A stretch of 59,581 nt of DNA. Source: a virus (Duplodnaviria > Caudoviricetes). Shown here piece by piece: positions 1 through 57,305 of this stretch. How positions within the stretch are numbered: position 1 is the first letter of the stretch; every line of letters starts with the position of its first letter. The DNA lies in IMG/VR virus record IMGVR_UViG_3300031578_000032, positions 1-59,581 of that record; one strand, written 5' to 3'. Position numbers and translations under genes: made by a program. Under the pieces are notes generated by a model that worked only from the letters and a program-made list of their open reading frames with translations, made no database searches and was not told the DNA's origin.

Positions 1-467
1 TGGATATCTTTTCTATCCTCATTTGGTAAAGCTCCAACTCTTGCTATAGTAAGAGAGTTGTATTTAAGTAGTTCGACAAAGGGAATTAGGTTTATTAATC
101 TCATGTCTAAATCTGTATGTATTAAAATGTTATTATAAAGTATAGGTTCAATCCAAGCACATACTAAAGGGACATTCCAATAACCACATGTAAATTTTTC
201 AGTCTCTGGAAAATATTTTTCAATATAAGTTACATCATATTCTTTTAATTGATCAATTGTTTTCCTTTCAGGAACTCGCTTAGATGGACATACACAATAG
301 ATATCAATACCCTTGGGATAGTATTGTCTCCATGACTTTACACATTCAATAGCTTCTTCTTCAAGGGGTTCTCCACCATCTCTTGTATATTCCTTATTTT
401 CCCAATACTTTCCTGCACCTAAATTTGTCTTACTGTTTTCAATTACCAATATTAATGAAGTATTCAT
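1..467 (-). CDS. partial glycosyltransferase-like (GT-A, DxD) protein, runs off window start
   Basis: Manual translation from ATG at 467 (ATGA overlap with upstream rSAM stop): MNTSLILVIENSK...CVKSWRQYYP...LIHTDLDMRL; open to window edge; hydrophobic strand followed by DxD. Confidence 0.5.
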   Translation of the reverse strand, partial: MNTSLILVIENSKTNLGAGKYWENKEYTRDGGEPLEEEAIECVKSWRQYYPKGIDIYCVCPSKRVPERKTIDQLKEYDVTYIEKYFPETEKFTCGYWNVPLVCAWIEPILYNNILIHTDLDMRLINLIPFVELLKYNSLTIARVGALPNEDRKDI

Positions 468-6034: not shown

Positions 6035-7019
6035 TTACATTTCCTTTCTTAAAATGTTTCATGTAATAATTAACAGAACATTTTGGATATTCTAAATCAC
6101 ATATACACTTCTTCTGCTTACATAAAATCCATTCATCAAGCTTCTTTGGTTCATCTTCTCCCAACACCATAACTTTAGGAATGTCATGTAAACATCTAGT
6201 AATTTTTCCATTGGGATGTACTGATATTTCACAATGACACATCATAAAATAAAAACTTCTATATTTATCATAGTTCAAGTAATCATTTGTACCATCAGAT
6301 AACATAACTTTTATACTTTCACTATCTAATTCTTCATCCCCTCTACAATCAACATGAGTATTGAAGTATTCAAAAGTACCTGAATCTGTTAATTCTTTAA
6401 ATTCTTTATCATATGCAAATTCATTTATTGGATAGACAGTTACCAAATCTACAATGTTTTCATCACTATACTTTATCAAATATTTATCTTTATATTTATC
6501 ATAAACTTCTTTAATCTTATCAGCATTTTTTTCAGTTAGCATTAAAAATACTTTTGATAAACAACCTTTATCATATAAAAGTTCTACTTTAGAAAACCAT
6601 TCTTCATCATCTTTAACACCATGACTGTGATATGAACACGTAAAATCAAAAGACTCTTTAAGTGGTAAACTTTTAAAATATTCATATGGTTTTAATAAAT
6701 TTGTAACTACATGAATATAACTATTTTTTAACTTACCTGCTTCATCAAGAAAGTATGGAAAATCCCTATGAACAGTTGGTTCTCCTCCAATTAAAGTCAT
6801 TGAAATTCTAGGTCTTTCTTGGATTAAAAGGAGTTTAATAAGTTCAGAGAATTGATTTTTTGATAAAAAGTCATATCTTTTTCTCGGTTTATCAAATCCG
6901 CCAATACAATAGTAACAACTATTATTACACTTATTTGTTAGAGTTACATTAGCATGAGCTGTTTCAACAAATTCTTTATAACCATGTATTGCATAATACT
7001 CTAATTTATTTTTTTTCAT
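6024..7019 (-). CDS. radical SAM protein
   Basis: CNNSCYYC, IGGEPT, MMC...NGKITRC...WILC...CICD. Confidence 0.9.
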   Translation of the reverse strand: MKKNKLEYYAIHGYKEFVETAHANVTLTNKCNNSCYYCIGGFDKPRKRYDFLSKNQFSELIKLLLIQERPRISMTLIGGEPTVHRDFPYFLDEAGKLKNSYIHVVTNLLKPYEYFKSLPLKESFDFTCSYHSHGVKDDEEWFSKVELLYDKGCLSKVFLMLTEKNADKIKEVYDKYKDKYLIKYSDENIVDLVTVYPINEFAYDKEFKELTDSGTFEYFNTHVDCRGDEELDSESIKVMLSDGTNDYLNYDKYRSFYFMMCHCEISVHPNGKITRCLHDIPKVMVLGEDEPKKLDEWILCKQKKCICDLEYPKCSVNYYMKHFKKGNVNET

Positions 7020-7821
7020 GAGTTATCCTATAATATTTTTTCATATCCATTCTTGGATATGCTTGATCACAAAAACAAATTTTAGATATACAAAATGTCC
7101 AGTCTTGAAGGTATTGCATCGGATCTGTATATATGTTAAAGATTTTATATTTTCTATCCATTTGTGCCCAACATCTCATAACATCACCATTTTCTCTAAT
7201 AATAAAACCTGGTTTACACATTTGATTTTTATAATTACCGTATATGTGTTCATAAATATTGTCCCAATCATATGTATTTTTCATTACATCATATGCTTCA
7301 GTTCCCAATATCTGATGGATGGGACATATCCAAAGTTGTCTCCTATTGAAATGTTTATAATATAAGTGTAATATTTGCTTGACATTATTTTCTTGAAGCA
7401 TGAAAAAGACCTCAGAATTTTTTAATGAATAAACCTTTTCAAACCACTTATCTATATCCGGAATCCAATCAGAATGAAACGAAGCATTAATTATAAAATT
7501 ATCGTACTTATTAAATTGTTCAAAATATTTCTTTGACCTTAATAAATTAGTGTGCATAAGCAAAGTAACGTTGTCAAATTCTTTATTTAATCTATCAGTA
7601 TATTCAATTAGTTTTGGATGTAACGTTGGTTCACCTCCATAGAATTGAAAGAAAAGATTCTCTTTTTTATGCAGATGTATAAACTCAATAACTTTATCAA
7701 AATTATGTTCGACTGTTTCTCTAACATCTTTTTCTTCATTCCAATAACAATACCAACACTTTATATTACATTTTTGAGTTAATACAAATGTTATTTCAAG
7801 AGTAGTATTATAATCAATCAT
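7006..7821 (-). CDS. radical SAM protein
   Basis: CNIKCWYC, FYGGEPT, ASFHSDW, MC...ENGDVMRC...WTFC...CFCD. Confidence 0.9.
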   Translation of the reverse strand: MIDYNTTLEITFVLTQKCNIKCWYCYWNEEKDVRETVEHNFDKVIEFIHLHKKENLFFQFYGGEPTLHPKLIEYTDRLNKEFDNVTLLMHTNLLRSKKYFEQFNKYDNFIINASFHSDWIPDIDKWFEKVYSLKNSEVFFMLQENNVKQILHLYYKHFNRRQLWICPIHQILGTEAYDVMKNTYDWDNIYEHIYGNYKNQMCKPGFIIRENGDVMRCWAQMDRKYKIFNIYTDPMQYLQDWTFCISKICFCDQAYPRMDMKKYYRITHEKK

Positions 7822-8660
7822 AGTATATCCATAATGGGGTCATCTGATTTAAAAAACCTATCTTTCAATCCTATTTTCTGTAGTTCATGATAACGATACC
7901 ATGAACCATCCTTTATTTTATATTGGTTATTGTATATTATGTTCTTGTTATAAAAATAAGCCTCCATTAATAATCTACATCTAGGTTCAAAATATAGCCC
8001 ATCATGAATATACATATAAGTATCCCATAGTTCAAAAAAGTTTTTTGGATGTTTAACTAAAACTGTTATTCTATTGGTTGGATCAATATTTTTATTACCA
8101 GAAACAATTATATTTTTATTAGTTAATGTTAATGCTCGAGTTAATTCTGTTGCACTTTTACCTGAACAATTAATATAACAATTACTTCTATCCTTTTTAA
8201 CTTCTTTGTAAAGGTCAAATGGAAACCTTAATTTATAATCAACATTTCCAACACCAAATGGCATTTCATTATAAACAGTATAGTTTGGTCTATCAATGTA
8301 GTCGTAAAATCTTTTTATGTAATTTTTATCATGATCGTAAATAATGTGATAGTGTGAGGCAAGTGTGTATGGAAGAACAGAAGTTGTACCATAGTCCATT
8401 ATAAGAATATTGTCAAAAGAGAGGTATATGAGTTTGTATTCTGTTTCTAAAACTATTATGTTATCTTTGTAATTAAAATCTATATTATATCTATCTCTAA
8501 TTATTTTAAATACATCTTCTAATGTAAGATGACGCTTTATAATAAGAATTAATTTTGTATCTTTATTTAATTTTTGTGTTTGCAAATAATATTCTATAAC
8601 ATCAATTAGTGCACCATTAATATGATAACATCTGAATATTATAGCATTCATATATTTCAC
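7818..8660 (-). CDS. hypothetical protein, possibly glycosyltransferase-like
   Basis: 280 aa, first of the coupled rSAM block; C-terminal FEPRCRLLMEAYFY resembles the GT-B E-x7-E-A segment. Confidence 0.35.
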   Translation of the reverse strand: MKYMNAIIFRCYHINGALIDVIEYYLQTQKLNKDTKLILIIKRHLTLEDVFKIIRDRYNIDFNYKDNIIVLETEYKLIYLSFDNILIMDYGTTSVLPYTLASHYHIIYDHDKNYIKRFYDYIDRPNYTVYNEMPFGVGNVDYKLRFPFDLYKEVKKDRSNCYINCSGKSATELTRALTLTNKNIIVSGNKNIDPTNRITVLVKHPKNFFELWDTYMYIHDGLYFEPRCRLLMEAYFYNKNIIYNNQYKIKDGSWYRYHELQKIGLKDRFFKSDDPIMDIL

Positions 8661-36470: not shown

Positions 36471-37922
36471 TTATGCACCGATTGTCAAAGCAGCTATGCC
36501 ACTGGATCTGACAAGCGCAGTTGCGTACCGACTTAAGATTGTCAGACTTGGTGTATAACCAAGTGGATACGGATGTAAAACCGCTGGAACATAAGGTGAG
36601 TAAAAGTAAACAGCCTTTAATTCTTCCATTGGTTTGAAGACCATTAACATAGTACCTTGTGGAACTACAGCACTAGTTAGCACTCTCCATTTTCCACCAG
36701 CAACTGTCGCTGATCTGTAACCTAAGTCACCGTCAACTGAAGAAGTTCCAACATAATTAAATGTTTGTAGATCTTCAAGAATAGCAACATCAAGTGGATT
36801 AGCTAAAATAGTGTTTCCAGCATCAATGTTAGTATCTGTATAAATTGTACCAGACAATTCATTCAGTGGAACGATGATATTTTCATGCCAATACTTAGTT
36901 CCCCAAGTATACGTATCAGGCGGGGTTCTATTAAATGTCTTAGTATGTGTAGCACCATTTAATCTTGTATTAGCTGTAATCAGAGCATTAATTATCTCTC
37001 TGTCAATATCCAGAGCAACTTGCTGACCCAAAATATTTACGATTTCTGCTTGAATTGAAACATCAAATAGAGCTCTCATATCTTGCTCCATATTGACTGA
37101 CCAATTAGCAGAGATTTGACGATCTCTAGCATATAGACGAATTTTGTCTACACTTAAAGTAACAGAAGGATTGATTCTATTTTCTTCCAGAGATGTAGTG
37201 ACTTGATACTTAACATAAACTGCAACACCAGTTGTGTTAGAAATTGCAAGAGTACCGTTTAAGTAATCAACCATACCTGAAACAACGTCTGAATTTGCAC
37301 CTATTGTTATACTTGAACTAAAATGTCCTTCAACAGCTGGAACGATTGAAACGCTTGTCCATGCTGTACCATCTGTAGAAACAGCTGTAATCTCAAAGTC
37401 TCTTTCTAAATGAGCTTGAGCTGATGTTAAACTAGCAACAGCAAGAACATCTAGAGCACTTTGTGGAACAGATGTAGTAGCTGTAACCGGAGTACCAATT
37501 CCAACACCTTGAGAAATATCAGGTGTAGTAACAGGCGCATTATACTGTATTGAGCTGTTTGATGGAGAAAATGTAGCTTTAATAAATGCTTTTACACTTT
37601 CTGGTTTATCCATTGGTGAAACTGTAATTGCTTCTTTAGCAACCAGTTTAGGATAGAACACTCTTAAAATAGGCAGTGTTAAACTTTCATAAGGATTAAT
37701 CTGAAACATTGAATTTTCTAAAAGATTAATTCTTGTGTTTTCTGCCAGTTGTGTAAATGTTTTACGATCTTTTTTATCCTCGATTGATTCCGCTAACCCA
37801 GTAACGTATGCATTAAAAGCTGCGTCGTCGATAAGTACTGCTTTCATATTGCCAGGTTTTGAAGGATCAATTCCGGATAACTTTTTAGTAGTCCGATAGA
37901 CTTCTGTTAGTAATTCTTTCAT
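36471..37922 (-). CDS. major capsid protein (T4 gp23-like)
   Basis: LPILRVFYPKLVAKEAITVSPM, ARDRQISANWSVNMEQD, VALDIDREII, YFYSPYVP, LSRYA; GGAGG RBS. Confidence 0.9.
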   Translation of the reverse strand: MKELLTEVYRTTKKLSGIDPSKPGNMKAVLIDDAAFNAYVTGLAESIEDKKDRKTFTQLAENTRINLLENSMFQINPYESLTLPILRVFYPKLVAKEAITVSPMDKPESVKAFIKATFSPSNSSIQYNAPVTTPDISQGVGIGTPVTATTSVPQSALDVLAVASLTSAQAHLERDFEITAVSTDGTAWTSVSIVPAVEGHFSSSITIGANSDVVSGMVDYLNGTLAISNTTGVAVYVKYQVTTSLEENRINPSVTLSVDKIRLYARDRQISANWSVNMEQDMRALFDVSIQAEIVNILGQQVALDIDREIINALITANTRLNGATHTKTFNRTPPDTYTWGTKYWHENIIVPLNELSGTIYTDTNIDAGNTILANPLDVAILEDLQTFNYVGTSSVDGDLGYRSATVAGGKWRVLTSAVVPQGTMLMVFKPMEELKAVYFYSPYVPAVLHPYPLGYTPSLTILSRYATALVRSSGIAALTIGA

Positions 37923-38061: not shown

Positions 38062-38475
38062 CTATCTGGAAAATCGTTTTCCTATAATCTTGAGGGTGTT
38101 TGCTAAGTGATAATCAAGTTTTTCTTCTGTAAGCGTATCAATAATTTTTAATAGAATTACCATCTCATGTTTTAAATTACCATCATGAATTAATCCAGAA
38201 GATACTAACTTATTAATTCTATCTAGTAATTTAGATTCTTTTTGTTTTTTCTTATAATCTTTGATACCTTGTTCAAGTTGTCTTTTCGATTCTAATACCT
38301 GAACTTGTTTACTTTCTAATACTTTTTCTAATTTATTAACCTGTTCCACTTTGGTACTAAAAATTTCATCAAATAAAGGGTAAATATTTCTTATAATATT
38401 ATCAGCTAAAACAACTTTTGATTGGTTAATATTTTCTTCATGAACATCAGGGATTTTAGTTTCAATTATATTCAT
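38062..38475 (-). CDS. coiled-coil hypothetical protein (head module)
   Basis: 137 aa between protease and MCP. Confidence 0.6.
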   Translation of the reverse strand: MNIIETKIPDVHEENINQSKVVLADNIIRNIYPLFDEIFSTKVEQVNKLEKVLESKQVQVLESKRQLEQGIKDYKKKQKESKLLDRINKLVSSGLIHDGNLKHEMVILLKIIDTLTEEKLDYHLANTLKIIGKRFSR

Positions 38476-38762
38476 AGTTCACTCCCCAAACTTTCTAGTA
38501 TTTTTTCTCTTAATTTTACATTTGAATTATTTATTAATTCAAATTTTGTATCTAAATTTTTTTGAAGTTTTTCACCTTGTTTAACTAAATAATTTTTCTT
38601 TTCAATTTTTTTGTTTAAATTTTCAATAACATATTCCACAGATTCTAGTTTATCTTTTAATGGAAAATTAGGATCTGTTTTGCAAATAGCAAATATTCTT
38701 TCAAGAACTTGTGGCAACATTTCTTTTGATGTTTGCCTTCTTTCTATTTTTTCAATTCTCAT
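38472..38762 (-). CDS. hypothetical protein (head module)
   Basis: 96 aa, ATGA overlaps on both sides. Confidence 0.55.
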   Translation of the reverse strand: MRIEKIERRQTSKEMLPQVLERIFAICKTDPNFPLKDKLESVEYVIENLNKKIEKKNYLVKQGEKLQKNLDTKFELINNSNVKLREKILESLGSEL

Positions 38763-39679
38763 ATATTCTCCAATGACTGATTTAAAAATTTTTGTGATTC
38801 CACACTACAAGTTATTTTTGCTAAATTTCCAGTTGAACATTCACTACCAGCTGGATGACCATATTTGTAGTGGCATCTCTCGCAAACAGATATTGCATAA
38901 TCTGGATCTAGTGCAAAAAATGGTTCAAGCTTTTTAGGTCTTAAATGATGAACTATGGTCGCATGTTCTCCACAGTAGTGGCACAGTTCGTTATCTCTTT
39001 TTAAAACAAGTTGATTTAAAGTATCAAGTTCTGTTGAAGTGTAAGGTAATTTATTATCTTTAATTTCATATGGATCATTTTGTAGCCCATATAAAAAGCA
39101 TGTATCCTTACAGTGTTGAGAACAGTAAAAGTAACTTAAATCATGACCATAATTTTCTAAAGCGCTTATTCTAGCTTCTAATTGTCTACTAGTTGGAGTG
39201 AACCATCCATCTTTTTCTTTTGAGTTTTTACATTCATGGTTTTTACAATGGACCTGTATTTCTCTCTCTTCTAATGGTTTATATGGGTTGTATCTCATTT
39301 CTTCTATTTTAGAAAAGAAAAGATATTTTTCATTTATTATTTCTATACTTCTTCTACAGGAGTATGCTTCTATACCCTTATTCCAAGGCTCTCTTCCTTT
39401 TAATTTTTTTCTCAAAATTTCTTTAACTTTTTCACTTCTTGGACAATTTTTGTTATGTGGAATTCTACCAAGAGCTTTTAATCTTATTTTTTCTTTTGCT
39501 TCAGAAGTTTGTTTTCTTTTATACATAGGATTGTTTTTTCCAATTGTTTGTTGTTTAAGTCTTTCTCTGTTAGCGGGACAACTTTGCCATTTTTCACTAC
39601 AACACCATTTCCCATTCTTAAACTGATATTTTGCTTCTCTACCACAACCATATTCGCAAATTTTCAAATTTAGACCCAC
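38759..39679 (-). CDS. HNH homing endonuclease with NUMOD3-like repeats
   Basis: CEYGCG, GKNNPMY, PWNKG, RDNELCHYCG...VHH...CERCH. Confidence 0.85.
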   Translation of the reverse strand: MGLNLKICEYGCGREAKYQFKNGKWCCSEKWQSCPANRERLKQQTIGKNNPMYKRKQTSEAKEKIRLKALGRIPHNKNCPRSEKVKEILRKKLKGREPWNKGIEAYSCRRSIEIINEKYLFFSKIEEMRYNPYKPLEEREIQVHCKNHECKNSKEKDGWFTPTSRQLEARISALENYGHDLSYFYCSQHCKDTCFLYGLQNDPYEIKDNKLPYTSTELDTLNQLVLKRDNELCHYCGEHATIVHHLRPKKLEPFFALDPDYAISVCERCHYKYGHPAGSECSTGNLAKITCSVESQKFLNQSLENI

Positions 39680-40335
39680 CTTTCAAAAAAGTTTGCTACT
39701 TTAGTTTCAATCAATTTATCAAAATAATTTGGCATAAAACATTGTCCATCTACACATATTAGTCCATTGTCAGATTCAAATAACATAGCTTGCTCAAATT
39801 TCATTTCATTAAAATCAACAACAGCAGCTCTATGTGATGGCATTGACACAGCATCAAATGCTATAATAGTTAATGGAGATCTAACAACACTATGATCTTT
39901 TAATCTTTCTAATTCTGCTAATCCTCTCATTGAAAATCCAACGCCAGTCTTATCTCGTAATAATGAAAACAAAGTATTTCCTTTTTGGGTACTTAATGTT
40001 TCCATTTCTCCAATTAAAACATTTTGTTTAAATTCATATGCTCTTATAATGTGAGATGCATTATTTAATGAAACAGTTGTTTGTCTTATACCATCAATTT
40101 GATCATTCCCTGTTGGCAAAGGATGGTCAAGCTCTGAATAAAACGCTCTCCTGTTCATTCTCATATCACAATGTCCCATACCCTCACCTAACACTGAACT
40201 TGGATATAACCTACCATTTTGATTTATTTCATCAGTAGTTTGTATTGGGCATCTGAATATTGCTCGGGTTGGCGTTTGTTTAACAATCTCAGCTTCTGAA
40301 TAAATACCCTGCTCTATAATAAATTTTGAACTCAT
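39670..40335 (-). CDS. prohead protease (T4 gp21-like)
   Basis: NQNGRLYP, ELDHP, SHII, GFSMRG, FDAVSMPSH. Confidence 0.92.
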   Translation of the reverse strand: MSSKFIIEQGIYSEAEIVKQTPTRAIFRCPIQTTDEINQNGRLYPSSVLGEGMGHCDMRMNRRAFYSELDHPLPTGNDQIDGIRQTTVSLNNASHIIRAYEFKQNVLIGEMETLSTQKGNTLFSLLRDKTGVGFSMRGLAELERLKDHSVVRSPLTIIAFDAVSMPSHRAAVVDFNEMKFEQAMLFESDNGLICVDGQCFMPNYFDKLIETKVANFFERWV

Positions 40336-41013: not shown

Positions 41014-42924
41014 TTAAAATCCACCCATTGCTCCTCCGCCCATTCCACCCATTCCACCCATTCCACCCATTTCATCTTCTTTCTTAGATGGATCAAGAGT
41101 TTGGTCAATCTTAACATCAGTTTCATATTTAGAAACTTCATCCCAATCAATTTGTGGAAGATATTTCTTTCTAGAATACTCTTTTGGTATTCCTACTCTT
41201 TCAAGTCCATCAATCAATCCGGTAACTTCATTCATATATCTCGCTTCTCTTTCATATTGTAATGATTTTGGTGGTGGAAATGAAACTTGAACATTATCAA
41301 ATATTGTTAGAGCTTCTTCTGGACTCATTATATCAAATAATTTTTCAATCAGATCCTGTACCTGATGTGTTAGATATTTTTGATGTGATATGATTGTTCT
41401 TGCAAATAATATATTTTCTTCAGTCAATGTATTCTTAGCAGAAATGTTTTCTTCAATCCCAATAAATCCAGGTGGGACTCCAAGACCAGCTACAAGTTGA
41501 TCTCTCATAAATTTAAGTTCATCAACTTTGCTTCTAACATCAACATTTCCTTCATTAAATGTACTAATATCTACAAATGGTTTTCCATCTCGTTGTGGGA
41601 TATAAACATCTTCAAAAGTTGTAATCATACTTGGAATTGTATCAACTGTACCGAAACTATCCAGGGTAATTTTTCTTTTTCTAAATTCTTCTTTAAGTTT
41701 TTCAATTACCTTTTTAGCATCTCTTGGAAGACCAACTTCAACAGCAATCTTTCTTTTTTCAGTTGATCTTGATAATCGTTGTATTGCTAATGCAGTTTCA
41801 AGAGCAATTAAAACTTTTGCTGAAAATTGACCATTATCAAATATTGATTCTCCATATGGATAATATTTACTTGAAGGAATTCTAAAATGAACCATTTTAT
41901 CAGGAGACACATATCTAATTTCTATTGATTTATTATAATCAGATTGTGCTAGCATTTGACGAATAATATGTTTAAGTTCATCATTATTTTTAAATTCTTG
42001 CATTTGTGGAATTTTTGCTTCCAGACTTTTAAGAATTGAAAGTACAATATTATTAATAGCATCTTCTGCAATAGAGGTACCAGGAACTGCTGTTATTTGT
42101 GGAAAAATTAAATAACCAAAACAAACCGGAAATAATGAACTCTGTAATCTTAAAACATATTGTGGCTCATGATAAATTAATTTCAGATTCTTAAGCAATT
42201 TCATACTTTTAATATCTTTATTATCCTCTTTCTTTTCAGTAAGAGAAGAATAATTAATTGAGAAATTATATATCTCTTTATTAATAGTTTCATTAAAATT
42301 ATCAACATCACCAACCCTTTTTGAAGTTTCAACAGCATTAAGATATTCTTTTTCTGAAAGTAATGATTTACTTGTTAAAGCTGTAATAGCATCCCCAATT
42401 TCACAGAAAAAATCGCCAAATAATAATGTATTTTTTACAATTAAATTTAAATCTTTTTCTAACTTAATCTTTTTAATAACATTCTTAACTCTTCTTACTT
42501 GAGCTTCTTCTGATACATCCTCAGAATCAACAGATGAACCTGTGGATTTAATATCCAAAGAAATTTTTGTAATATCATCAGGAGATAAAATGTTATCAAC
42601 TATAACATTTAAGGCTCTATGACAATAATTAATATTAGAAATTATTGCTTGATAGGTTTTATATCTAAGTATTCTACCACCTTGCCCAAATGATGATGGT
42701 CCAGCTCCTCCTTGAGAAAAAAGACCACTAGATGAACTAATTTGAACATTAGCATTTTTAGATATTAAACTTTTAACGAGATCAATATATCCATTACGCC
42801 CACTATTACTTCTATATGTTGATATATCTTTTACAACTTGATCTAGTTTAGCATCAATTTTTTGAGTCCGTGTACCCATTACTGCTAATTTCAATTTAGT
42901 AAACGTATCTTTTATTTCTGGCAT
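41014..42924 (-). CDS. portal protein (T4 gp20-like)
   Basis: YPYGESI, LETALAIQRLSRSTEKR, EDVYIPQRDG, DELKFMRDQLVAGLGVP, FARTI. Confidence 0.9.
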   Translation of the reverse strand: MPEIKDTFTKLKLAVMGTRTQKIDAKLDQVVKDISTYRSNSGRNGYIDLVKSLISKNANVQISSSSGLFSQGGAGPSSFGQGGRILRYKTYQAIISNINYCHRALNVIVDNILSPDDITKISLDIKSTGSSVDSEDVSEEAQVRRVKNVIKKIKLEKDLNLIVKNTLLFGDFFCEIGDAITALTSKSLLSEKEYLNAVETSKRVGDVDNFNETINKEIYNFSINYSSLTEKKEDNKDIKSMKLLKNLKLIYHEPQYVLRLQSSLFPVCFGYLIFPQITAVPGTSIAEDAINNIVLSILKSLEAKIPQMQEFKNNDELKHIIRQMLAQSDYNKSIEIRYVSPDKMVHFRIPSSKYYPYGESIFDNGQFSAKVLIALETALAIQRLSRSTEKRKIAVEVGLPRDAKKVIEKLKEEFRKRKITLDSFGTVDTIPSMITTFEDVYIPQRDGKPFVDISTFNEGNVDVRSKVDELKFMRDQLVAGLGVPPGFIGIEENISAKNTLTEENILFARTIISHQKYLTHQVQDLIEKLFDIMSPEEALTIFDNVQVSFPPPKSLQYEREARYMNEVTGLIDGLERVGIPKEYSRKKYLPQIDWDEVSKYETDVKIDQTLDPSKKEDEMGGMGGMGGMGGGAMGGF

Positions 42925-45408: not shown

Positions 45409-46896
45409 TCAAATTTCACAGCCAGGAAAACTCATTGGAGCATTTTGTGTTGAATCTGCCTTCCTAACATTAACCAATAAATTAGCATTAAGAAACTTAA
45501 ATTTATCAAATGCTACTTGAAAATTAATTGACACTCCGCTCTTACCACTACGGTTTTTACCAACTTTTCCATAAACAATTGTGTCATCTGTTTGATCTTT
45601 TGCCATTAACATAACAAAATCTGCATGCTCTACTTTTTTAATTGATTCCGACATTTGATCTACATTTAATTGACTTGCTTCTTGTATTCTGTATGCAGCT
45701 CTTCCTAATTGTGAAGCTGTAACCACAGGGATATTATATTGTACTGCTAAAGTTTTCAATGATAAAGTAATATGCCCTAATTCTAATCTATACATATCAT
45801 ATCCTGTATCTGCTTTTAACAGATCTAAATAATCAACATACAACCCAGCAATAGCTTCTTTACCATAATCGTTTATTGCATCATCAACAACCCCCATTAA
45901 ATCAACTACACTAATACTCATTGCTGGAAAATATTTCATAATAATTGTTGAGCCACAGTTGGTAAATTTATTAACTATTTTTTTCTTAAATTCTTCAATA
46001 TTAAAATTTTCCCTTGTAAGTTCTCGTAACATTTGAGGTGTTGTTTTATTAAACATTGGTTGATAAGTTCTAATTAAAGCTTCTTCAATTGTATTTTCCA
46101 TGGTTACATAAACATAAACCTTGTTTATTTCATTTGGTTTTATTATTGGTTTATTAGGATCTATTAATGTTGCTGATTTATAAATTGTATTATTTAACAT
46201 TGTTGATTTACCAGCTCCAGATCCTCCACCAAAAACATATAATCTGGATGGTTCATACCCACCAAGCATTATATTATTATCAAAAATTGGAAATCCAGTT
46301 GGAGTTGTATTTTGTCTTTCATATTTTTTCTTAATCATTTCAACAACATGACTATAATCATCCTTGACTAAATCTAGCGATGCTGATGCTTCAATAGTAA
46401 CTGATCTATTACTTTCCATTAAATTTGAATATAGTTTCTTTATAGTTACTTCATAATCTTCAACCATATTATCAATAGAATCAAATGACCCCTCTTTAAT
46501 TGAATCCAGCACATCACTTAATTCATCATAATTTTGGAATAGAGCATTAATCTTTTTTCTTAATCTAATTTGATTAATAATATCTTGGAATGCATGATCT
46601 TTAATATTTTCATTAACCTTCAAGTCTATAAAACCAACATGCTGCCTGAACTTTTCTCCAATCATAATACTATCTATTGCATTCTCAACAATTTTATCCT
46701 TTAGAAACATTCCACATAATTGTTTTAATAACTCTAACTTATTCTGAACTTCTACCGGAACATCAAATGACTTTTGTCCCTCACTGAACTTCAATACATC
46801 CAAAATATCTCTGTATAATGCTTTTACCTTTCTAATTTTAGAATTTTTATTCAGAAGTAAGATAAAACATGAATTAAGAAATGAATCAGTAATCAT
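45409..46896 (-). CDS. replicative DNA helicase (DnaB/T4 gp41-like)
   Basis: GGSGAGKS Walker A, YVTMEN, VDYLDLL, TASQLGR, KNRSG. Confidence 0.92.
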   Translation of the reverse strand: MITDSFLNSCFILLLNKNSKIRKVKALYRDILDVLKFSEGQKSFDVPVEVQNKLELLKQLCGMFLKDKIVENAIDSIMIGEKFRQHVGFIDLKVNENIKDHAFQDIINQIRLRKKINALFQNYDELSDVLDSIKEGSFDSIDNMVEDYEVTIKKLYSNLMESNRSVTIEASASLDLVKDDYSHVVEMIKKKYERQNTTPTGFPIFDNNIMLGGYEPSRLYVFGGGSGAGKSTMLNNTIYKSATLIDPNKPIIKPNEINKVYVYVTMENTIEEALIRTYQPMFNKTTPQMLRELTRENFNIEEFKKKIVNKFTNCGSTIIMKYFPAMSISVVDLMGVVDDAINDYGKEAIAGLYVDYLDLLKADTGYDMYRLELGHITLSLKTLAVQYNIPVVTASQLGRAAYRIQEASQLNVDQMSESIKKVEHADFVMLMAKDQTDDTIVYGKVGKNRSGKSGVSINFQVAFDKFKFLNANLLVNVRKADSTQNAPMSFPGCEI

Positions 46897-47212
46897 ATGG
46901 TCTCCCTATATAATGTCTTTTCATAGAATCTGGATGTGAAAGAGATTCTAATATTTCTTTATCTATTTGTTTTGCTACTTCTCGTGTCATTTCTTCCATA
47001 AGTTTGCCCTGAAAATCTATCTCAAAACTATTAGATGTTTCACTCATACTTGTCTGACTAAACGATACTTTAAAAAACCTTGGTTTTATACTTCCCATGG
47101 CATTAGTCACCCAATCAAGTTTTCCTTTTCCCATACATTTTGGGCATAGATTTTTAATATATCCTATATCATTACATTTGTCGCATATTACTTCACCATC
47201 ATTTAGTATCAT
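46886..47212 (-). CDS. DnaJ-type zinc finger fused to a major-capsid-like fragment
   Basis: GEVICDKC...CPKCMGKGKLDWV; tail aligns ungapped with the MCP in this window. Confidence 0.7.
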   Translation of the reverse strand: MILNDGEVICDKCNDIGYIKNLCPKCMGKGKLDWVTNAMGSIKPRFFKVSFSQTSMSETSNSFEIDFQGKLMEEMTREVAKQIDKEILESLSHPDSMKRHYIGRPYDY

Positions 47213-47658
47213 TTGTCAGCCACCACATTCATAATTTTTTGTCTCCATGATATTTTTTCTTTATAAGGAATTGTTTTAATTTTAGGTAATTGACGTATAT
47301 TTACTTTAGACTTTTGTTTAAGAGACTTTCCACCAGGTATGCTTTTTGGTGAAGAGGGTGGGAGTGTATTGATAAAATAAAATGGGATGTAAAGTTTTGC
47401 ATGACCACTACTACCACCAACAATATGTGCTGATGATGAATTCAGTCCATTAGTTCCAGACATCCCAGCGCCAGTCGCATTAGTTATCCAATCAAGTTTT
47501 CCTTTACCTAAACAATGATAACATCGAGAAACTTTATTATCTTCACAATCATAAAAATATCCCCAACCATTACAGACCTCACATATACAATCACCATCTT
47601 TAAAATCTTCAAATTTCTTTATATCAGTTTTTCTGTAATAAACGGCCTCTTTGTTCAT
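47209..47658 (-). CDS. DnaJ-type zinc finger paralogue with a G/S-rich tail
   Basis: CEVCNGWG...CYHCLGKGKLDWI; GMSGTNG..SSS..GGSSG. Confidence 0.65.
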   Translation of the reverse strand: MNKEAVYYRKTDIKKFEDFKDGDCICEVCNGWGYFYDCEDNKVSRCYHCLGKGKLDWITNATGAGMSGTNGLNSSSAHIVGGSSGHAKLYIPFYFINTLPPSSPKSIPGGKSLKQKSKVNIRQLPKIKTIPYKEKISWRQKIMNVVADK

Positions 47659-49040
47659 ATTTTTAATAACTCCGTTTCATGATTTAAATTAATAAATTCA
47701 TCCTTATCTAAAAACCTTTTAACTAAATCTTCACAATAATTTTCATCTAATTGTACTAACATATCCAATGATCTTGCAACCATAGCAGCTTTCTTTACAC
47801 CCTTTTTTGTCATTTTACCACTATTTAAATCTCTTGTTAATGTTGCACATTGGATTTCAAATTCGCCTTTTTCACCCGACTTATATAACGGATAAATTTC
47901 ATCTGCAAGTTTTCTAGATCGTTCTTGAATTTCTGCCCATTGCCATAACATATATAGCATTGAATATACTTTTACATCTTCATAAAATGTTCCAGTCTTT
48001 GGATCATAAACTTCACCAACTTTAATCTTTTTGAAATTCATTTTATCTGAAAATTCATCTAGAATTATTTGTAACTGTTCATAAACCCTAACATATTTAC
48101 TAAACATGTTATTTAGATTTGGAGTCCTCAAATCCATTTTTTGAAGATGACCATCTGGGTGGTCAACCCATAAATATCTTCCAATCATTAAAGACTTAAA
48201 TAAACCAGACGAGTCATAAGTGATGTTTAATTTTATATTATGTTTTTCTAATACAACTTTCCTAAATAATTCATAAAAAGTTACATCTCGAAAATTTGCT
48301 CCACCTAAAATATGAAAGTTCAAAAAATCTCTTCCATATCTTTTAGCTTCATTCAATAAAGGAATTATTGGTAGAACATATATAATACAAGGAATAACCA
48401 TATCTGAAGACATGTTTGCTACAATACCACCTGTACCATGATATTGAAATGAGTTAAACATATTATCTTCTCGAAGTATTTTTGTGTAAAGTTTCCATAA
48501 TTCTGGTGTTCTAAAATGATGTATATAAATTATTTTTTTTCTAATATCATCGGGAAGTTCTTTAGCCCGATTATATGATTCTAAGTTTAGTTCATACACA
48601 TCTTTAAATGTTTTAAATATTTCACAATTTGGACCAGGCGGAATATCTAAAATAAATGCTCGTTCTATAACTTGATGGTGATTTTCAATCCACTCATAAT
48701 ACATTTTACCAAGTAAATTAGATTCCTCTCTAGTTAATCTACCAACAGATATTTGAAATCCTCCTGAGTCTACTATCAAATCTGATGAATTGAAAAACCC
48801 CCAACTTCGACATTTGTTATATACATTTTCTTCATTTTTATTATAGTTTTTATATCTTTTTTTACCAGCAAAATTTTGACCATATGAATGAAGGAATCCA
48901 GAGCAGATTTCCCCAAGAAAATCAGAAATTTGATCCCTCGTAAAGTTGTCATAAAATCGATCTTTTTTACCTAACATATAATTATTTAATATAGAAGCAA
49001 GACTTTCAAATCCTGCCAAAATGTAACCAGATTTAACCAT
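47655..49040 (-). CDS. TGT/DpdA-like base-exchange transglycosylase
   Basis: LIVDSGGFQ, ILDIP, GTGG, FHILGG, TYDSS pattern of the TGT fold; QueE nearby. Confidence 0.7.
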   Translation of the reverse strand: MVKSGYILAGFESLASILNNYMLGKKDRFYDNFTRDQISDFLGEICSGFLHSYGQNFAGKKRYKNYNKNEENVYNKCRSWGFFNSSDLIVDSGGFQISVGRLTREESNLLGKMYYEWIENHHQVIERAFILDIPPGPNCEIFKTFKDVYELNLESYNRAKELPDDIRKKIIYIHHFRTPELWKLYTKILREDNMFNSFQYHGTGGIVANMSSDMVIPCIIYVLPIIPLLNEAKRYGRDFLNFHILGGANFRDVTFYELFRKVVLEKHNIKLNITYDSSGLFKSLMIGRYLWVDHPDGHLQKMDLRTPNLNNMFSKYVRVYEQLQIILDEFSDKMNFKKIKVGEVYDPKTGTFYEDVKVYSMLYMLWQWAEIQERSRKLADEIYPLYKSGEKGEFEIQCATLTRDLNSGKMTKKGVKKAAMVARSLDMLVQLDENYCEDLVKRFLDKDEFINLNHETELLKI

Positions 49041-49092: not shown

Positions 49093-49488
49093 CTATTTTA
49101 TAGTAAAATTTAAAGCAATAGTATAAGTGGTGTTAACCGGTTTAATATTAATATTAATATACTTATTTATACAACTTGATTTAACTTCATAATCAATAAT
49201 TACTTTATTTACCTGTAAAGATTCTAAATGTTCTTTCATTTTTTTATTAAAAATATATATATTATTAAAATCTTCACTACAAGCTATCTGTTTAATAGAT
49301 GAAATAAATTCTCTGACGTCTATACGTTCTAAAATTGACCTTTTTTTACTTTTTATTACAGCATTAGAAATCCAGTCAATCTTTCCAATACCATCACATT
49401 TTCCACATATATAAATATCATTTGTATCGTGGGTAGTTCCTTTACAAACAGGACATATCATTTCACCTTCTTCTAATTTAAGATTCAT
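49093..49488 (-). CDS. DnaJ-type zinc finger fused to a tail-sheath C-terminal-like domain
   Basis: GEMICPVC...CGKCDGIGKIDWI; SILERIDVRE...IK, IIDYEV, INIKPV...IALNFTIK. Confidence 0.7.
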   Translation of the reverse strand: MNLKLEEGEMICPVCKGTTHDTNDIYICGKCDGIGKIDWISNAVIKSKKRSILERIDVREFISSIKQIACSEDFNNIYIFNKKMKEHLESLQVNKVIIDYEVKSSCINKYININIKPVNTTYTIALNFTIK

Positions 49489-49501: not shown

Positions 49502-49744
49502 TCATCTAAAATCATGGGTTGTATTGAAAGTATTTCTTTTGCCATTAACTTTGGATATACTGTTTTTCATAACAAATACAGACCTTGGAGGAGCTTTTCC
49601 AACACATGCCTCAATCCAATCAAGTTTTCCAGCACCCCAACATTTCATACAAACAGTAACGGACTCACCAAAACTTTTAGATTTTCCATGACAATTATCA
49701 CAAATTATTTCACCTTCTTCTAATTTAATATCTTTCATTCTCAA
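49502..49744 (-). CDS. DnaJ-type zinc finger paralogue with a short tail
   Basis: GEIICDNC...CMKCWGAGKLDWI. Confidence 0.65.
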   Translation of the reverse strand: MRMKDIKLEEGEIICDNCHGKSKSFGESVTVCMKCWGAGKLDWIEACVGKAPPRSVFVMKNSISKVNGKRNTFNTTHDFR

Positions 49745-50262
49745 AATTCCTTAATTACATATGGAGGTCCAGTTGCCATATCATATGTAGTTGATGCCTT
49801 TAAAGCTGCCATTATTCGTCTTTTAGAATTACTCCATGTTCTTGTTGTCCATAATGATCCAAGTGCATAAGGAGCACCAGAACCAATCGCTACAAAGTCT
49901 TTAAGCTCATTCATTTGAAAATCAGTTAAAATCTCAAATAATTTTCCATTAGGTGTAGCTATTAAAAAATTTGATGATTGTATAGAAGTTTGGTCTTCTG
50001 GATTTACAGCTAAACAGCCCTTAATTTCTAACTGTTCCCTTATCTTATCAGGAAATTCAAAAATATCTTTAGGGGGATTAAAATACTCTGATCTAATTAC
50101 TTGTCCTGTTCTGATGACTCCAACATGTCCAATAAGATAAGGATGATTATAAAACATTTTTTTATTTATTATACGTCTTCTTTCTCCCTCTGCAGTAGTA
50201 GCATAACTATCAGCTCCCATCCACACTTTTCCGTTATCAATAATCCCAACAATAGTAGACAT
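49741..50262 (-). CDS. Ntn-hydrolase (HslV/proteasome beta-like) peptidase
   Basis: MSTIVG...MGADS, K, AIGSGAPYALG. Confidence 0.8.
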   Translation of the reverse strand: MSTIVGIIDNGKVWMGADSYATTAEGERRRIINKKMFYNHPYLIGHVGVIRTGQVIRSEYFNPPKDIFEFPDKIREQLEIKGCLAVNPEDQTSIQSSNFLIATPNGKLFEILTDFQMNELKDFVAIGSGAPYALGSLWTTRTWSNSKRRIMAALKASTTYDMATGPPYVIKEF

Positions 50263-51084: not shown

Positions 51085-51378
51085 TTATTCACCTTCCTTT
51101 TTACTCATAATTCCATACACTTCATCATACTTTAAAACTTTACATAAATGACGATCGAGAATTATATCCATACCACCATGTTTATTAAACATAATTATAT
51201 CACCTACTTCAATATCTTTTACTAATCCACCAATAGATGTTACTTTTCCTAATCCTTGTGGTTTCAACTTACCTTGTGCTACTTCGGGTACAATAATTCC
51301 ACCTTCTGTTTTGTTATCCTCTTCTAATATTTTTACTATTATTTTATCATTGACTGCAATTGCATTTAATTCATTCAT
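51085..51378 (-). CDS. groES: co-chaperonin GroES
   Basis: DKIIVK, KTEGGIIVP mobile loop, G.V..IG, VGDIIMF. Confidence 0.9.
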   Translation of the reverse strand: MNELNAIAVNDKIIVKILEEDNKTEGGIIVPEVAQGKLKPQGLGKVTSIGGLVKDIEVGDIIMFNKHGGMDIILDRHLCKVLKYDEVYGIMSKKEGE

Positions 51379-51665: not shown

Positions 51666-52328
51666 TTATATAAACCCGTATATGACATGATCTCTTGACG
51701 AAAAATTAAAATTATATTCTTCACAAGCATCAAATACAGCTCCAGAATTTTTTATTAAGTCTGCTCTTGTTACTCCCTCAATCATTAAATATACTCGTTG
51801 GTTTACATTAAGGACAGACAAAGCTTCTAAATAATCATTAACCAAAGCTCTGTCTTCATAAACAACTTTAAAATAAACATTCGGATATTTGATTAATTGT
51901 CCAGTTGAGATTATTTCATTCTCTAAATCTCTTTGTGTAAATATTTTTGGCGAATATGAATAATTTACATTTTTGTCTGCTTTAACTTGTGAAATAAGGG
52001 ACAGAAGATTATAGCCATTAGTTTCAACATTTGCTATTGGATAATCTAATTCATTTAACAAAAGTAAACATTCCTTAAAATGTTTAGCTATTGTTGGTTC
52101 TCCACCTGTTACTAAAATTCCACATTTATGTTCATCTATAACTTTTTGAATGGCTGATAAATCATAAATACCTTCTTGTGAAATTCTCATTTTAACATTT
52201 GTATCACAAAAACTACATTTCCTATTACAATACTTAAACCTTAAAATGACCATTAAACGACCTCTATCTACTCCCTCCCCCTGAAAACTCCTAAAAAATT
52301 CAATAAGTTTTACTTGTTTTCCTTCCAT
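51666..52328 (-). CDS. queE: 7-carboxy-7-deazaguanine synthase-like radical SAM
   Basis: EFFRSFQGEG, CNRKCSFCDT, TGGEP, ETNG, SPK. Confidence 0.85.
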   Translation of the reverse strand: MEGKQVKLIEFFRSFQGEGVDRGRLMVILRFKYCNRKCSFCDTNVKMRISQEGIYDLSAIQKVIDEHKCGILVTGGEPTIAKHFKECLLLLNELDYPIANVETNGYNLLSLISQVKADKNVNYSYSPKIFTQRDLENEIISTGQLIKYPNVYFKVVYEDRALVNDYLEALSVLNVNQRVYLMIEGVTRADLIKNSGAVFDACEEYNFNFSSRDHVIYGFI

Positions 52329-56513: not shown

Positions 56514-57305
56514 ATGCAAACAAACATTACTTATCAAAAAGCAATAGACATCTTACAATTGAATAAACAAAACATTACAATTCCGCATACATTAATCAAT
56601 TTCAGGTCTATGATTGCAAATGATGAATTAACAGATTATTCGGAGTCCAGTTTAATAGAAGCCAAAAATATCATACTCCGTTCATGGATCGAAGAACAAC
56701 TTCAAAAACAAGGTCATTGGGAGTTAAAGTCTCCTTACAAAGATGAATGTAAAAGGTGTAATGGTACTGGCGAAATCTATAAATTAGAGAAAGAGAAAAA
56801 ACCATGTCATGCATGTAATGGTGATGGTTACTTATGGGTTAAATGTAGAAATTGCGAAGGTACAGGCAGATTTATAAGAGATGATAAAAAGGCCAAAGGT
56901 CTTATAATAAATGTTGAATGTAATTGTACCAAATTTGCCAACCATTATGGCGATAAATACAAAGGTAAAATTCGAGTTCGGTGCCGAGAATGTCTTGGAA
57001 AAGGAAATATTGAAAATTTGAAAAATTCCAAGGAATGGAAAAATAAGAATTTTAGATATACAGGAAAAATTTATACCACTACTAAATGCCCAAACTGTTA
57101 TGGTTTTGGTTTTCCTGTTACACCAAGAGGTCATTTGAATCCAGTTTTATCAAACCGCCTTGTACAAATCATCAATACTGAAGACACTGTTCATGTGGAT
57201 CCTCTTAGTTTGGATCCTTTGTATGTTATACATAGAATACCAATAAGAACTACTCATTCTGTGATAGATTCTTCGATGCTTAAAATTGCTAGAGAATCCA
57301 TTTAA
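56514..57305 (+). CDS. DnaJ-like zinc-finger (CxxCxGxG repeat) protein lacking HPD
   Basis: CKRCNGTG, CHACNGDG, CRNCEGTG, CRECLGKG, CPNCYGFG. Confidence 0.7.
   Translation: MQTNITYQKAIDILQLNKQNITIPHTLINFRSMIANDELTDYSESSLIEAKNIILRSWIEEQLQKQGHWELKSPYKDECKRCNGTGEIYKLEKEKKPCHACNGDGYLWVKCRNCEGTGRFIRDDKKAKGLIINVECNCTKFANHYGDKYKGKIRVRCRECLGKGNIENLKNSKEWKNKNFRYTGKIYTTTKCPNCYGFGFPVTPRGHLNPVLSNRLVQIINTEDTVHVDPLSLDPLYVIHRIPIRTTHSVIDSSMLKIARESI

Follow-up and report, generated by a model that had tools for sequence, protein, structure and literature searches.

A small zinc-knuckle protein of an uncultured large phage carries a C-terminal tail that resembles part of the major capsid protein (MCP) of the same phage. 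The question raised by this locus is whether the resemblance reflects common descent and what a capsid fragment on a zinc handle might do for the phage. The protein, ZF108 (P0001), is encoded within a window of 59,581 nt, meaning the whole stretch of DNA analysed, and the numbers in the names ZF108, ZF149, ZF131 and ZF78 are lengths in amino acids. No description of a protein joining a zinc finger to a Gp23 fragment was found in the literature searched. We consider it highly probable (about 0.93), on the basis of sequence comparisons across the wider family, that the ZF108 tail helix is homologous to the spine helix of Gp23-type MCPs, while the proposed function is more tentative.

Organization of ZF108 and its paralogues

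ZF108 is a two-module protein in which a zinc module with an LDW motif is joined through a flexible linker to an MCP-type helix of ~30 residues. The gene, its parts and its paralogues are as follows.

46886..47212, minus strand: ZF108, 108 aa, zinc-knuckle protein with a capsid-type helix tail
47090..47206, minus strand: zinc module and LDW motif (residues 3-41), one DnaJ-CRD-type zinc centre
47027..47089, minus strand: linker (residues 42-62), Ser/Thr-rich, low-confidence (AF2 pLDDT 56-75)
46937..47026, minus strand: amphipathic helix (residues 63-92), probable copy of the MCP spine helix
46889..46936, minus strand: C-terminal motif (residues 93-108), S-x-P-x-S-L-K-x-Y...Y-D
47209..47658, minus strand: paralogue ZF149, same zinc module, unrelated tail
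49093..49488, minus strand: paralogue ZF131, same zinc module, third tail type
49502..49738, minus strand: paralogue ZF78, same zinc module, short tail

The zinc-centre cysteines are C10, C13, C23 and C26, the second pair in a CxxCxGxG motif and the first in a degenerate one, and the conserved motif K-L-D-W-V-x-N-x-x-G follows. Across alignments of 93 and of 149 sequences there is no variation at C23, C26, G28 or W34, and conservation is 90% or more at C10, C13, K31, D33 and G40. AF2 models this module with strands at residues 7-9 and 31-33 and a helix at 34-39 (pLDDT 82-93). The linker appears to be a decayed remnant of the MCP strand and short helix: in the hhalign register, F51 of ZF108 stands opposite MCP W274, an invariant residue, and the family column is F in 40% and W in 34% of sequences.

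The tail helix, modelled by AF2 at residues 64-92 with a pLDDT of about 95, has the core motif A-x-x-I-D-K-E-I-L. Residues 63-92 correspond to MCP residues 286-315 and to T4 gp23 residues about 282-311. The best conserved family positions in the helix are D84 (99%), I87 (90%), I83 (87%) and A80 (83%), each of which in ZF108 is the same as the invariant MCP residue. Beyond the helix, residues 93-108 had no match to the MCP, and their motif is conserved in the alignments of the closest ZF108 subfamily only.

The start of ZF108 overlaps the stop of the upstream paralogue ZF149, and the similarity between the two (BLASTP, 21/46, E 2e-12) covers the zinc module only. Copies of this module number four in the window and reach about nine or more in related loci.

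The ZF108 tail and the capsid protein of the window

The MCP and the segment that matches the tail lie downstream on the same strand.

36471..37922, minus strand: MCP, Gp23 family, 483 aa (Pfam Gp23, 3.2e-31)
36981..37127, minus strand: MCP residues 266-314, source-type segment (strand, short helix, spine helix)

The MCP has 677 homologues at E<=1e-10, which are 81-100% identical among the 120 matches listed, and the segment 266-314 is nearly invariant across the clade. The original prediction, that the tail is an ungapped look-alike of about 49 residues, was exact in its coordinates and strings (ZF108 43-91 against MCP 266-314). Its identity counts were recovered as well: 11 of 49 positions across the whole alignment and 9 of 29 within the helix, the latter also given by BLASTP. 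Similarly, profile alignment returned the same register as the ungapped comparison (F47/I270, F51/W274), and the helix retains the hydrophobic stripe that is invariant in the MCP, in agreement with the claim of a conserved hydrophobic register.

The ungapped 49-mer has a BLOSUM62 score of 54. The best ungapped segment (ZF108 63-91 against MCP 286-314) also scores 54, and thus the first 20 tail residues contribute nothing to the pairwise comparison. None of 1000 tail shuffles reached this score (mean 26.8, sd 4.0, max 52). As a single pair, ZF108 and the MCP gave 25.4 bits in BLASTP (E 3e-4), and in a phmmer search of ZF108 against all 295 window frames (stop-to-stop, >=50 aa) the MCP was the best non-self match at E 0.023, followed by a match at 0.12. 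The prediction had named two outcomes that would speak against it, namely the lack of a Gp23 profile hit and shuffled controls that score equally well. The first was observed, in that the window protein has no match to Pfam PF07068 at E<=1, and the second was not. Taken alone, the pair is suggestive, not decisive, and marginal; the resemblance is judged to be more than chance because of the family-level evidence.

Homology in the wider family

Among ten picked relatives of ZF108, eight exceeded the Pfam Gp23 cut-off (PF07068 gathering score 24.4 bits) at profile positions 148-203, and 17 of 149 family members matched Pfam Gp23 at E<=0.01, with E as low as 1e-12. In one relative (P0142), the tail is identical to the window MCP at 23/46 positions (50%, E 2e-15), and the protein matches phrog_138 'major head protein' at 3.7e-10. 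The identity of the tail as a segment of Gp23 is thereby borne out through relatives that match Pfam Gp23 and the window MCP directly. Further, 47 of 96 helix-motif tails matched the MCP at E<=1e-3, compared with 0/96 after shuffling and 0/96 after reversal, and 87 of 95 tail matches fell within MCP residues 255-330.

The tails form a continuum from E 2.5e-16 down to no individual similarity to the MCP. When 93 ZF sequences were aligned with 41 MCPs, hhalign gave a probability of 95.3 (E 2e-8) in the same register; the closest ZF108 subfamily alone gave a probability of 33 (E 4.6e-4). A profile built from 49 individually non-similar tails had the MCP as its sole non-self match in the window (E 9.4e-4, the next being 3.0). 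Over 1742 ORFs of the related loci, a tail-helix profile matched ZF ORFs and five MCP ORFs only. A search with P0180 against 50,697 phage records matched 187 records, and all 40 matches listed fell under capsid genes.

In addition, a related phage encodes a sister ZF protein (L025) that carries another piece of the MCP (Gp23 profile 3-49, 29.1 bits, above the cut-off), and in L039 the helix segment also occurs as an independent ORF of 75 aa. Both observations, like the conservation of D84 and I87, speak against an accidental connection with the MCP. A homologue search with this 75-aa ORF returned itself alone. Short 'Gp23 domain-containing' proteins in the Atlas score 0.81; these are a lead only and are possibly cut capsid genes. 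A chance resemblance between two amphipathic helices would fit the window-wide E value of the pair, the absence of a Gp23 match in the window protein and a score that comes from 29 residues only, but it is contradicted by the family-level profile matches and by the reversed and shuffled controls, and we regard it as very improbable.

The segment can be placed on T4 gp23, where the 29 scoring ZF108 residues align with about 282-310 and the copied piece as a whole corresponds to 265-316, spine helix included. This region is the spine helix (alpha3) of the Gp23-family HK97 fold with its preceding strand (PDB 6uzc, 5vf3), to which ZF108 is probably homologous via its relatives. The tail had been described as the segment leading into the long helix; it is indeed a Gp23 segment, but the scoring residues are the spine helix itself. 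The position of the helix in the MCP rests on the T4 alignment and on PMC9546572, because AF2 modelled the MCP too poorly to be of use (mean pLDDT 53.5, with residues 247-315 under 50).

Divergence had been ascribed to an old capture or to a donor from another phage. The former fits, because the tails grade continuously whereas the MCP segment hardly varies within the clade, and the latter is not needed. An ancestor probably captured about 50 MCP residues (strand, short helix and spine helix), and the window lineage has kept no more of these than the helix, with vestiges of the strand.

Genomic setting

The genes around ZF108 and towards the MCP gene are as follows.

45409..46896, minus strand: DnaB-like helicase, directly downstream of ZF108 (Pfam DnaB_C, 2.4e-18)
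49741..50262, minus strand: HslV-like peptidase, same gene run (phrog_1040, 9.1e-16)
51085..51378, minus strand: phage GroES/Cpn10 homologue (Pfam Cpn10, 2.9e-12, above cut-off; synteny)
41014-42924, minus strand: portal, between ZF108 and the MCP (phrog_213, 4e-23)
39670..40335, minus strand: head maturation protease (phrog_207, 1.3e-23)
38062-38475: scaffold candidate

The GroES homologue heads a tightly packed same-strand gene run that contains ZF108. The same-strand cluster holds DNA polymerase, GroES, thymidylate-synthase-like, HslV, DpdA-like and ZF genes, then helicase, portal, protease, scaffold candidate and MCP, and it is conserved in 20 of 35 related loci. The last 11 nt of the ZF108 gene overlap the start of the helicase gene, an arrangement also found between ZF and helicase genes in L003, L006, L014, L020 and L023. 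In 11 of 16 loci (E<=1e-3), the helicase gene is preceded by a helix-type ZF gene at a distance of no more than 1.5 kb, and this conserved position points to a core gene. Between positions 44000 and 53500, promoter-like sites numbered 50 (54.5 expected) and terminator-like sites one (2.4 expected); these counts are uninformative as to timing.

Divergence and variety of the tails

ZF108-type tails diverge fast, with 33-44% identity to relatives; the contrast in rate with the MCP is drawn from the listing of MCP homologues and the identities of ZF108 relatives. Reads from three DNA sequencing runs were identical to ZF108, and selection is not readable from them because there is no variation among them. 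The ZF family comprises at least 285 representative clusters and is so far found only in uncultured large phages. With ZF108 as tblastn query, 15 of the 50,697 phage records were matched, none below E 3, and no cultured relative was found.

Members of the family occur in expanded tandem arrays whose tails are of many unrelated kinds. The idea that all of these are copies of the phage's own structural proteins was considered and is unsupported beyond the MCP. In a 248-kb record (G002), 0 of 7 ZF tails matched any of the 323 other ORFs at E<0.01, the best match (0.014) being Gly-rich and of low complexity, so copying of client proteins is not general; in the 35 loci, MCPs were the only clear non-ZF targets of ZF tails. 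A 'D-N-R-I-I-S' C-terminal extension, present in 11 relatives, was rejected as an MCP piece, as its profile matches the MCP via the helix only.

Comparison with known systems

With Gp23 capsid proteins, ZF108 shares the hydrophobic register and the I-D-K/R-E-I core of the spine helix. Unlike them, it holds a piece of only about 30-50 residues out of about 480, which is attached to a zinc knuckle and evolves far faster than the MCP; with neither A nor P domain, ZF108 cannot build a shell. The full HK97-type fold is absent, the matches of relatives covering only positions 148-203 of about 376 in the profile; the 67-residue tail, modelled by AF2 as one long helix, is a probable fragment homologue and not a capsid protein.

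The zinc module resembles the DnaJ cysteine-rich domain (PF00684) in its CxxCxGxG-type cysteine pairs. DnaJ has two zinc centres and a J domain, whereas ZF108 has one zinc centre and no J domain, and no J-domain family was found among the Pfam matches of ZF108 and 149 relatives. PF00684 needs four CxxCxGxG repeats and at least 32.7 bits; ZF108 has two cysteine pairs, the first of the form CxxCxxxG, and scores 14.9 bits (E 0.032). The family was matched by 124 of 149 relatives at E<=0.01, with the scored examples examined all below the cut-off. Anti-TRAP (PF15777), a protein of about 53 aa that binds TRAP, gave 21.3 bits with the 108-aa ZF108 (E 2.8e-4, below the 32-bit cut-off) and matched 99 of 149 family members at E<=0.01. 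For BSD2 (PF25436), 6 of 149 relatives matched at E<=0.01, the best at 5e-4. No zinc-module family match reached its curated cut-off. The LDW motif and the MCP-derived tail of ZF108 are absent from the DnaJ, Anti-TRAP and BSD2 families.

A Foldseek search of the ZF108 model against the PDB found nothing at E<=0.001, and its seven weak rows were all Anti-TRAP (3ld0, E 0.88, TM 0.27/0.52) or BSD2 (E 2.8-5.4). Both are small zinc-knuckle proteins that bind other proteins, a point in favour of the folding or assembly role proposed below. BSD2 acts as a Rubisco assembly chaperone. According to the entry title, its structure was solved in complex with an RbcL8 assembly; by analogy, it would be the nearest working model for the proposed capsid role.

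Two further parallels concern capsids. T4 gp31, the GroES analogue, is a folding factor supplied by the phage and dedicated to a Gp23-type MCP; ZF108 has no sequence or fold relation to gp31, and a role in folding is only presumed for it. Fv1 is a gag-derived, capsid-derived host restriction factor. In both cases, part of a capsid gene has been taken over and put to new use in a small protein of its own, with capsids as a conceivable target; unlike Fv1, ZF108 is encoded by the virus, its piece has 30-50 residues rather than a domain, and it is not known to restrict.

Two other kinships were rejected. The match of ZF108 to a lambda-type Q antiterminator (phrog_127/6060, PF03589) is limited to residues 7-31 (phrog_127, 0.01), and its tblastn matches to Q genes have E>=4 over residues 2-30. 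The T4 prohead core protein gp67 has a probability of 0.1 against the ZF family profile, and its likeness to T4 gp23 (E 0.6) lies outside the spine helix.

Possible functions

The reading that we favour, at somewhat less than even odds, is that ZF108 controls capsid folding or assembly by helix mimicry. Because the helix keeps the MCP-invariant hydrophobic stripe and the polar I-D-K/R-E-I core, we infer that it would sit in trans at the site normally taken by the spine helix of the MCP. Such a site might be offered by the P-domain sheet or the N-arm of the folding MCP itself, by the scaffold, or by the GroEL/phage-GroES route. The zinc module may be a common handle that binds a shared partner, and ZF108 would then be an MCP-directed folding or assembly factor, acting as holdase or timer. 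According to PMC9546572, the T4 gp23 substitutions G292S, V306I and V307I together, in the spine helix, remove the need for the gp31 co-chaperonin. In sequence alignments, positions 292, 306 and 307 stand opposite ZF108 E73, I87 and L88, and the window phage has its own GroES homologue and an HslV-like peptidase in the run. The SPP1 scaffold touches the N-terminal helix of the MCP and the amino end of the spine helix (PMC6813328), and these elements are the same two kinds of MCP piece as are found on ZF handles.

Several points count against this reading. Fast-diverging tails opposite a near-invariant MCP segment are accounted for by relaxed constraint or an arms race no less readily than by a dedicated chaperone, the gene to which ZF108 is translationally coupled is that of the helicase rather than that of the MCP, some 9 kb distant, and arrays with many unrelated tails are more typical of accessory genes. 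A complex prediction for the MCP (41-row alignment) and ZF108 (93-row), run without controls, scored 0.00 in two runs, and this score counts neither for nor against binding.

Among the alternatives, the arrays with their fast-changing tails and the location of ZF108 in a replication/modification run, not the late module, would suit an immune decoy or antagonist that shows MCP pieces early on a zinc handle and thereby blocks or pre-empts host capsid sensors. The copied pieces are also the most conserved MCP stretches, and the sister protein carries an N-terminal conserved MCP region. In T4 gp23, the Gol region lies in the first quarter; it activates the Lit protease and has been called the best conserved stretch of the protein (PMC3014915). 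By analogy, the L025 piece may correspond to this region. An accurate imitation of a trigger would be expected to act as a trigger too, however, and tails only about 20-50% identical to an invariant segment would be poor decoys. The helix-type ZF gene moreover occupies a conserved syntenic slot, like a core gene, and no defence or anti-defence family was matched among those searched, a set without the padloc library. We consider a decoy unlikely.

A replication-linked or other non-capsid role, with ZF108 as loader, regulator or zinc-binding accessory of the DnaB-like helicase and the captured helix exapted as a generic amphipathic or oligomerisation helix, seems similarly unlikely. It would account for the overlap with the helicase start, here and in five loci, and for helicase adjacency in 11 of 16 loci; 3 of 149 members weakly match a primase-helicase zinc ribbon (best 8e-4), and Anti-TRAP-like zinc modules oligomerise. 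A generic helix, however, is not expected to keep the polar core of the MCP (D84 99%), and a second ZF protein carries another MCP piece, a stand-alone helix copy lies away from any helicase, and differently tailed paralogues belong to the run although their genes do not adjoin the helicase gene. Still less probable is inter-phage interference or self-timing, in which a dominant-negative helix poisons or delays capsid assembly, either in co-infecting relatives or, ahead of initiation, with the MCP of the phage itself as its target. The tail is a probable fragment of an element that is assembly-critical, and one fragment could act on many relatives because the capsid segment is nearly identical clade-wide; but the phage's own identical segment would be poisoned too, and in our judgement the conserved slot and gene order are unlike those of known exclusion genes.

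Capsid mimicry can also be framed around the handle. Across this large family, the zinc knuckle may present short pieces of the phage's capsid protein in trans, namely the spine helix in ZF108 and, in the sister protein, the conserved N-terminal region, either as a donor-segment chaperone or timer beside the phage GroES or as an antagonist of capsid-sensing immunity; we hold this to be possible and rather doubtful.

Implications

The ZF family is large and apparently undescribed, and its helix-type tails now have a probable domain origin in the Gp23 capsid protein. Chaperone dependence is strong among Gp23-type capsid proteins, and bacterial immune systems are known to be triggered by capsid proteins. 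With its probable copy of the folding-critical spine helix on a DnaJ-like knuckle, the conserved ZF108 gene would offer a handle on both the chaperone and the immunity questions. ZF108 could show how very large phages control the folding and assembly of their shell proteins, or whether phages deploy pieces of their own capsids against sensors.

Likeness between the ZF108 tail and the capsid protein

The original prediction held that the tail of the zinc-knuckle protein ZF108 (the part after its zinc module, residue ~42 onward) resembles the backbone helix of the Gp23-type major capsid protein (MCP).

Genes for the capsid protein, ZF108 and its paralogues
36471-37922 (-): MCP, 483 aa, Pfam Gp23 3.2e-31
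46886-47212 (-): ZF108, 108 aa, zinc-module paralogue with helix tail
47209-47658 (-): ZF149, zinc-module paralogue with unrelated tail
49093-49488 (-): ZF131, zinc-module paralogue with unrelated tail
49502-49738 (-): ZF78, zinc-module paralogue with unrelated tail

The paired strings were located at ZF108 residues 43-91 and MCP residues 266-314 (nt 36981-37127), and the predicted identity was confirmed at 11/49 overall and 9/29 over ZF108 63-91 against MCP 286-314. These last 29 residues supply the whole BLOSUM62 score of 54, which none of 1000 shuffles of the tail, the control named in the prediction, attained (mean 26.8, max 52). Single-pair BLASTP gave E 3e-4; when the tail was compared with all of the window's 295 stop-to-stop frames, its top non-self match was the MCP (E 0.023; runner-up 0.12). 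ZF108 alone had no Pfam Gp23 match at E<=1. On its own the pair is suggestive of homology and does not settle it.

Zinc module and its relatives

In the N-terminal module, K-L-D-W comes after two cysteine pairs, of which one is a canonical CxxCxGxG; C23, C26, G28 and W34 are invariant in the ZF family. Matches of ZF108 to known families were all under cut-off, and Foldseek returned weak rows only, each Anti-TRAP or BSD2. The four window paralogues carry four different tails, and related loci contain tandem arrays of up to ~nine or more ZF genes. A 263-aa window protein at 56514-57305 (+) has several CxxCxGxG repeats (DnaJ_CXXCXGXG 1.2e-7, just below cut-off). Three public DNA runs, each from a different study, have contigs in which 15 bases are missing at position 47368, an in-frame loss of 5 codons within the ZF149 tail; the ZF108 sequence is identical in these runs.

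C-terminal to the helix, 11 helix-type relatives (P0134, P0157, P0178, P0182, P0185, P0191, P0192, P0202, P0229, P0240 and P0267) carry the motif D-N-R-I-I-S and then hydrophobic residues; no counterpart of this motif was found in the capsid protein.

Family-level evidence for homology

Word-based search found 11 close relatives of ZF108, and exhaustive phmmer defined a family of 285 representative clusters (E<=1e-3), many matches covering both zinc module and tail as far as residue ~92. The tail-helix motif is present in 96 of the 157 sequences inspected. Among ten relatives chosen by eye, eight exceeded the Pfam Gp23 gathering score (profile positions 148-203, best E 1.1e-12); a scan of 149 relatives at E<=0.01 recovered Gp23 in 17, DnaJ_CXXCXGXG in 124 and Anti-TRAP in 99. 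One relative, P0142, is identical to the window MCP at 23/46 positions of residues 269-314 (E 2e-15), aligns with T4 gp23 265-316 (PDB) and matches phrog_138 'major head protein' (3.7e-10). With another, P0180, tblastn against 50,697 phage records gave 187 matching records; among the matches listed, all 40 rows lay under capsid genes.

Tail-only comparison with the MCP gave an unbroken gradient from E 2.5e-16 down to no match. The MCP was matched by 47/96 tails at E<=1e-3 and by 16/96 at E<=1e-6, and by none of the 96 shuffled or 96 reversed tails; the best match lay inside MCP 255-330 for 87 of 95. Because the 96 tails had been selected by the helix motif, a profile was made solely from the 49 that were individually worse than 1e-3; it found the window MCP at E 9.4e-4 (next frame 3.0), and a profile of the 76 tails worse than 1e-5 did so at E 2.7e-6. 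Against 1742 ORFs from 35 related loci, a helix-only profile matched ZF ORFs and five capsid ORFs, and nothing else. In hhalign, 93 ZF proteins aligned with 41 capsid proteins at probability 95.3 (E 2e-8), pairing ZF 47-96 with MCP 270-319 in the same ungapped register as predicted; the closest ZF108 subfamily only (7 sequences) gave probability 33 and E 4.6e-4 (ZF 66-92, MCP 289-315). Judged by these family profiles, controls and profile alignments of sequences, the ZF108 tail is a diverged homologue of the MCP segment.

Identity of the copied segment

In T4 numbering the copied segment is gp23 265-316. The prediction described it as leading into the long helix; the segment stands, but the 29 scoring residues correspond to the spine helix itself, given the T4 mapping and the residue positions in PMC9546572. 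The same paper reports that gp23 G292S/V306I/V307I remove the need for the gp31 co-chaperonin; by alignment, these positions are window MCP 296, 310 and 311, and ZF108 E73, I87 and L88. An AF2 model of ZF108 (93-row alignment, mean pLDDT 82) has a small zinc ribbon (7-33), a short helix (34-39), a low-confidence linker (40-63) and a single long helix (64-92, pLDDT ~95); the MCP model was too poor for use. Family columns facing invariant MCP residues are conserved at A80 (83%), I83 (87%), D84 (99%), E86 (60%) and I87 (90%), and column 51, opposite MCP W274, is aromatic in 79% (F 40%, W 34%, Y 5%). Across the clade the MCP segment hardly varies; ZF relatives are just 33-44% identical to ZF108.

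The available portions of full-text literature held no description of a zinc-finger/Gp23-fragment protein, and in tblastn of 50,697 phage records ZF108 had no cultured-phage relative with E under 3. Its component parts are of known kinds and their combination is new.

Capsid pieces elsewhere

Two ORFs in related phage loci carry other copies.

L025 9646-9981 (+): sister ZF protein bearing another part of the capsid protein, its conserved N-terminal region (Gp23 profile 3-49, 29.1 bits, cut-off 24.4, E 8.7e-7; phrog_138 8.5e-6)
L039 1462-1689 (+), record G001: 75-aa ORF, a stand-alone strand and spine-helix copy without zinc module (Gp23 profile 141-198, 2.5e-7), ~23 kb upstream from its own phage's capsid gene

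The Atlas clusters nearest ZF108 are viral 'Gp23 domain-containing' proteins of 69-89 aa (score 0.81), a lead only, as they may be cut genes. No source protein was found for the other ZF tails.

Genomic context

At 31% GC the contig is AT-rich; it is a piece of a large uncultured phage whose MCP is ~25% identical to those of the nearest cultured phages. ZF108 sits in a tightly packed same-strand run: DNA polymerase, HD-domain protein, QueE-like, GroES, thymidylate-synthase-like, HslV-like peptidase, ZF78, ZF131, DpdA-like, ZF149, ZF108, DnaB-like helicase, portal, protease, scaffold candidate and MCP.

Further genes of the run
47655-49040 (-): DpdA / queuine-tRNA-ribosyltransferase-like, phrog_887, 1.2e-4
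49741-50262 (-): HslV-like peptidase, phrog_1040, 9.1e-16
51085-51378 (-): GroES/Cpn10 homologue, Pfam Cpn10 2.9e-12
51666-52328 (-): QueE-like, by eye only

The DpdA-like and QueE-like genes suggest 7-deazaguanine modification of phage DNA. The scaffold candidate is separated from the head protease by a cysteine/histidine-rich ORF (38759-39679, -) that by eye looks HNH-type endonuclease-like and may be a mobile insertion into the head module. At 464-8651 (-), ~eight tandem paralogous ORFs of 270-330 aa with N-terminal C-x3-C-x2-C-like motifs resemble radical-SAM enzymes by eye.

Gene order is kept in 20 of 35 related loci. In 11/16 loci (E<=1e-3) the helicase has a helix-type ZF no more than 1.5 kb upstream of it; three more loci come just above that threshold, but their ZF-region ORFs are identical and the three may represent a single phage. 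Overlap of the ZF gene with the helicase start is frequent. Given this conserved order and slot, the helix-type ZF behaves like a core gene with fast-evolving sequence.

Possible function

The architecture, homology and synteny of ZF108 are shown; everything further we infer. The reading we favour, at a probability of about 0.4, is that ZF108 may work by mimicry in head morphogenesis. Against it stand the coupling of its gene to the helicase gene, the quick divergence of the tails and a family expansion resembling that of accessory genes. A replication-linked role, with the helix exapted, is unlikely, and we rate about equally low an immune decoy or antagonist, for which it speaks that Lit is triggered by the Gol region in the first quarter of T4 gp23, called its most conserved part in PMC3014915. 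Dominant-negative interference seems less probable still, and chance resemblance is very improbable.

Mimicry in head morphogenesis gains support from SPP1, whose scaffold, according to PMC6813328, contacts the MCP at the spine helix and the N-terminal region, the same two kinds of capsid piece that occur on ZF handles. The tail retains the buried stripe and polar core of the spine helix, on which folding depends in T4 (PMC9546572). Through the invariant zinc module, the ZF proteins would share a binding partner.
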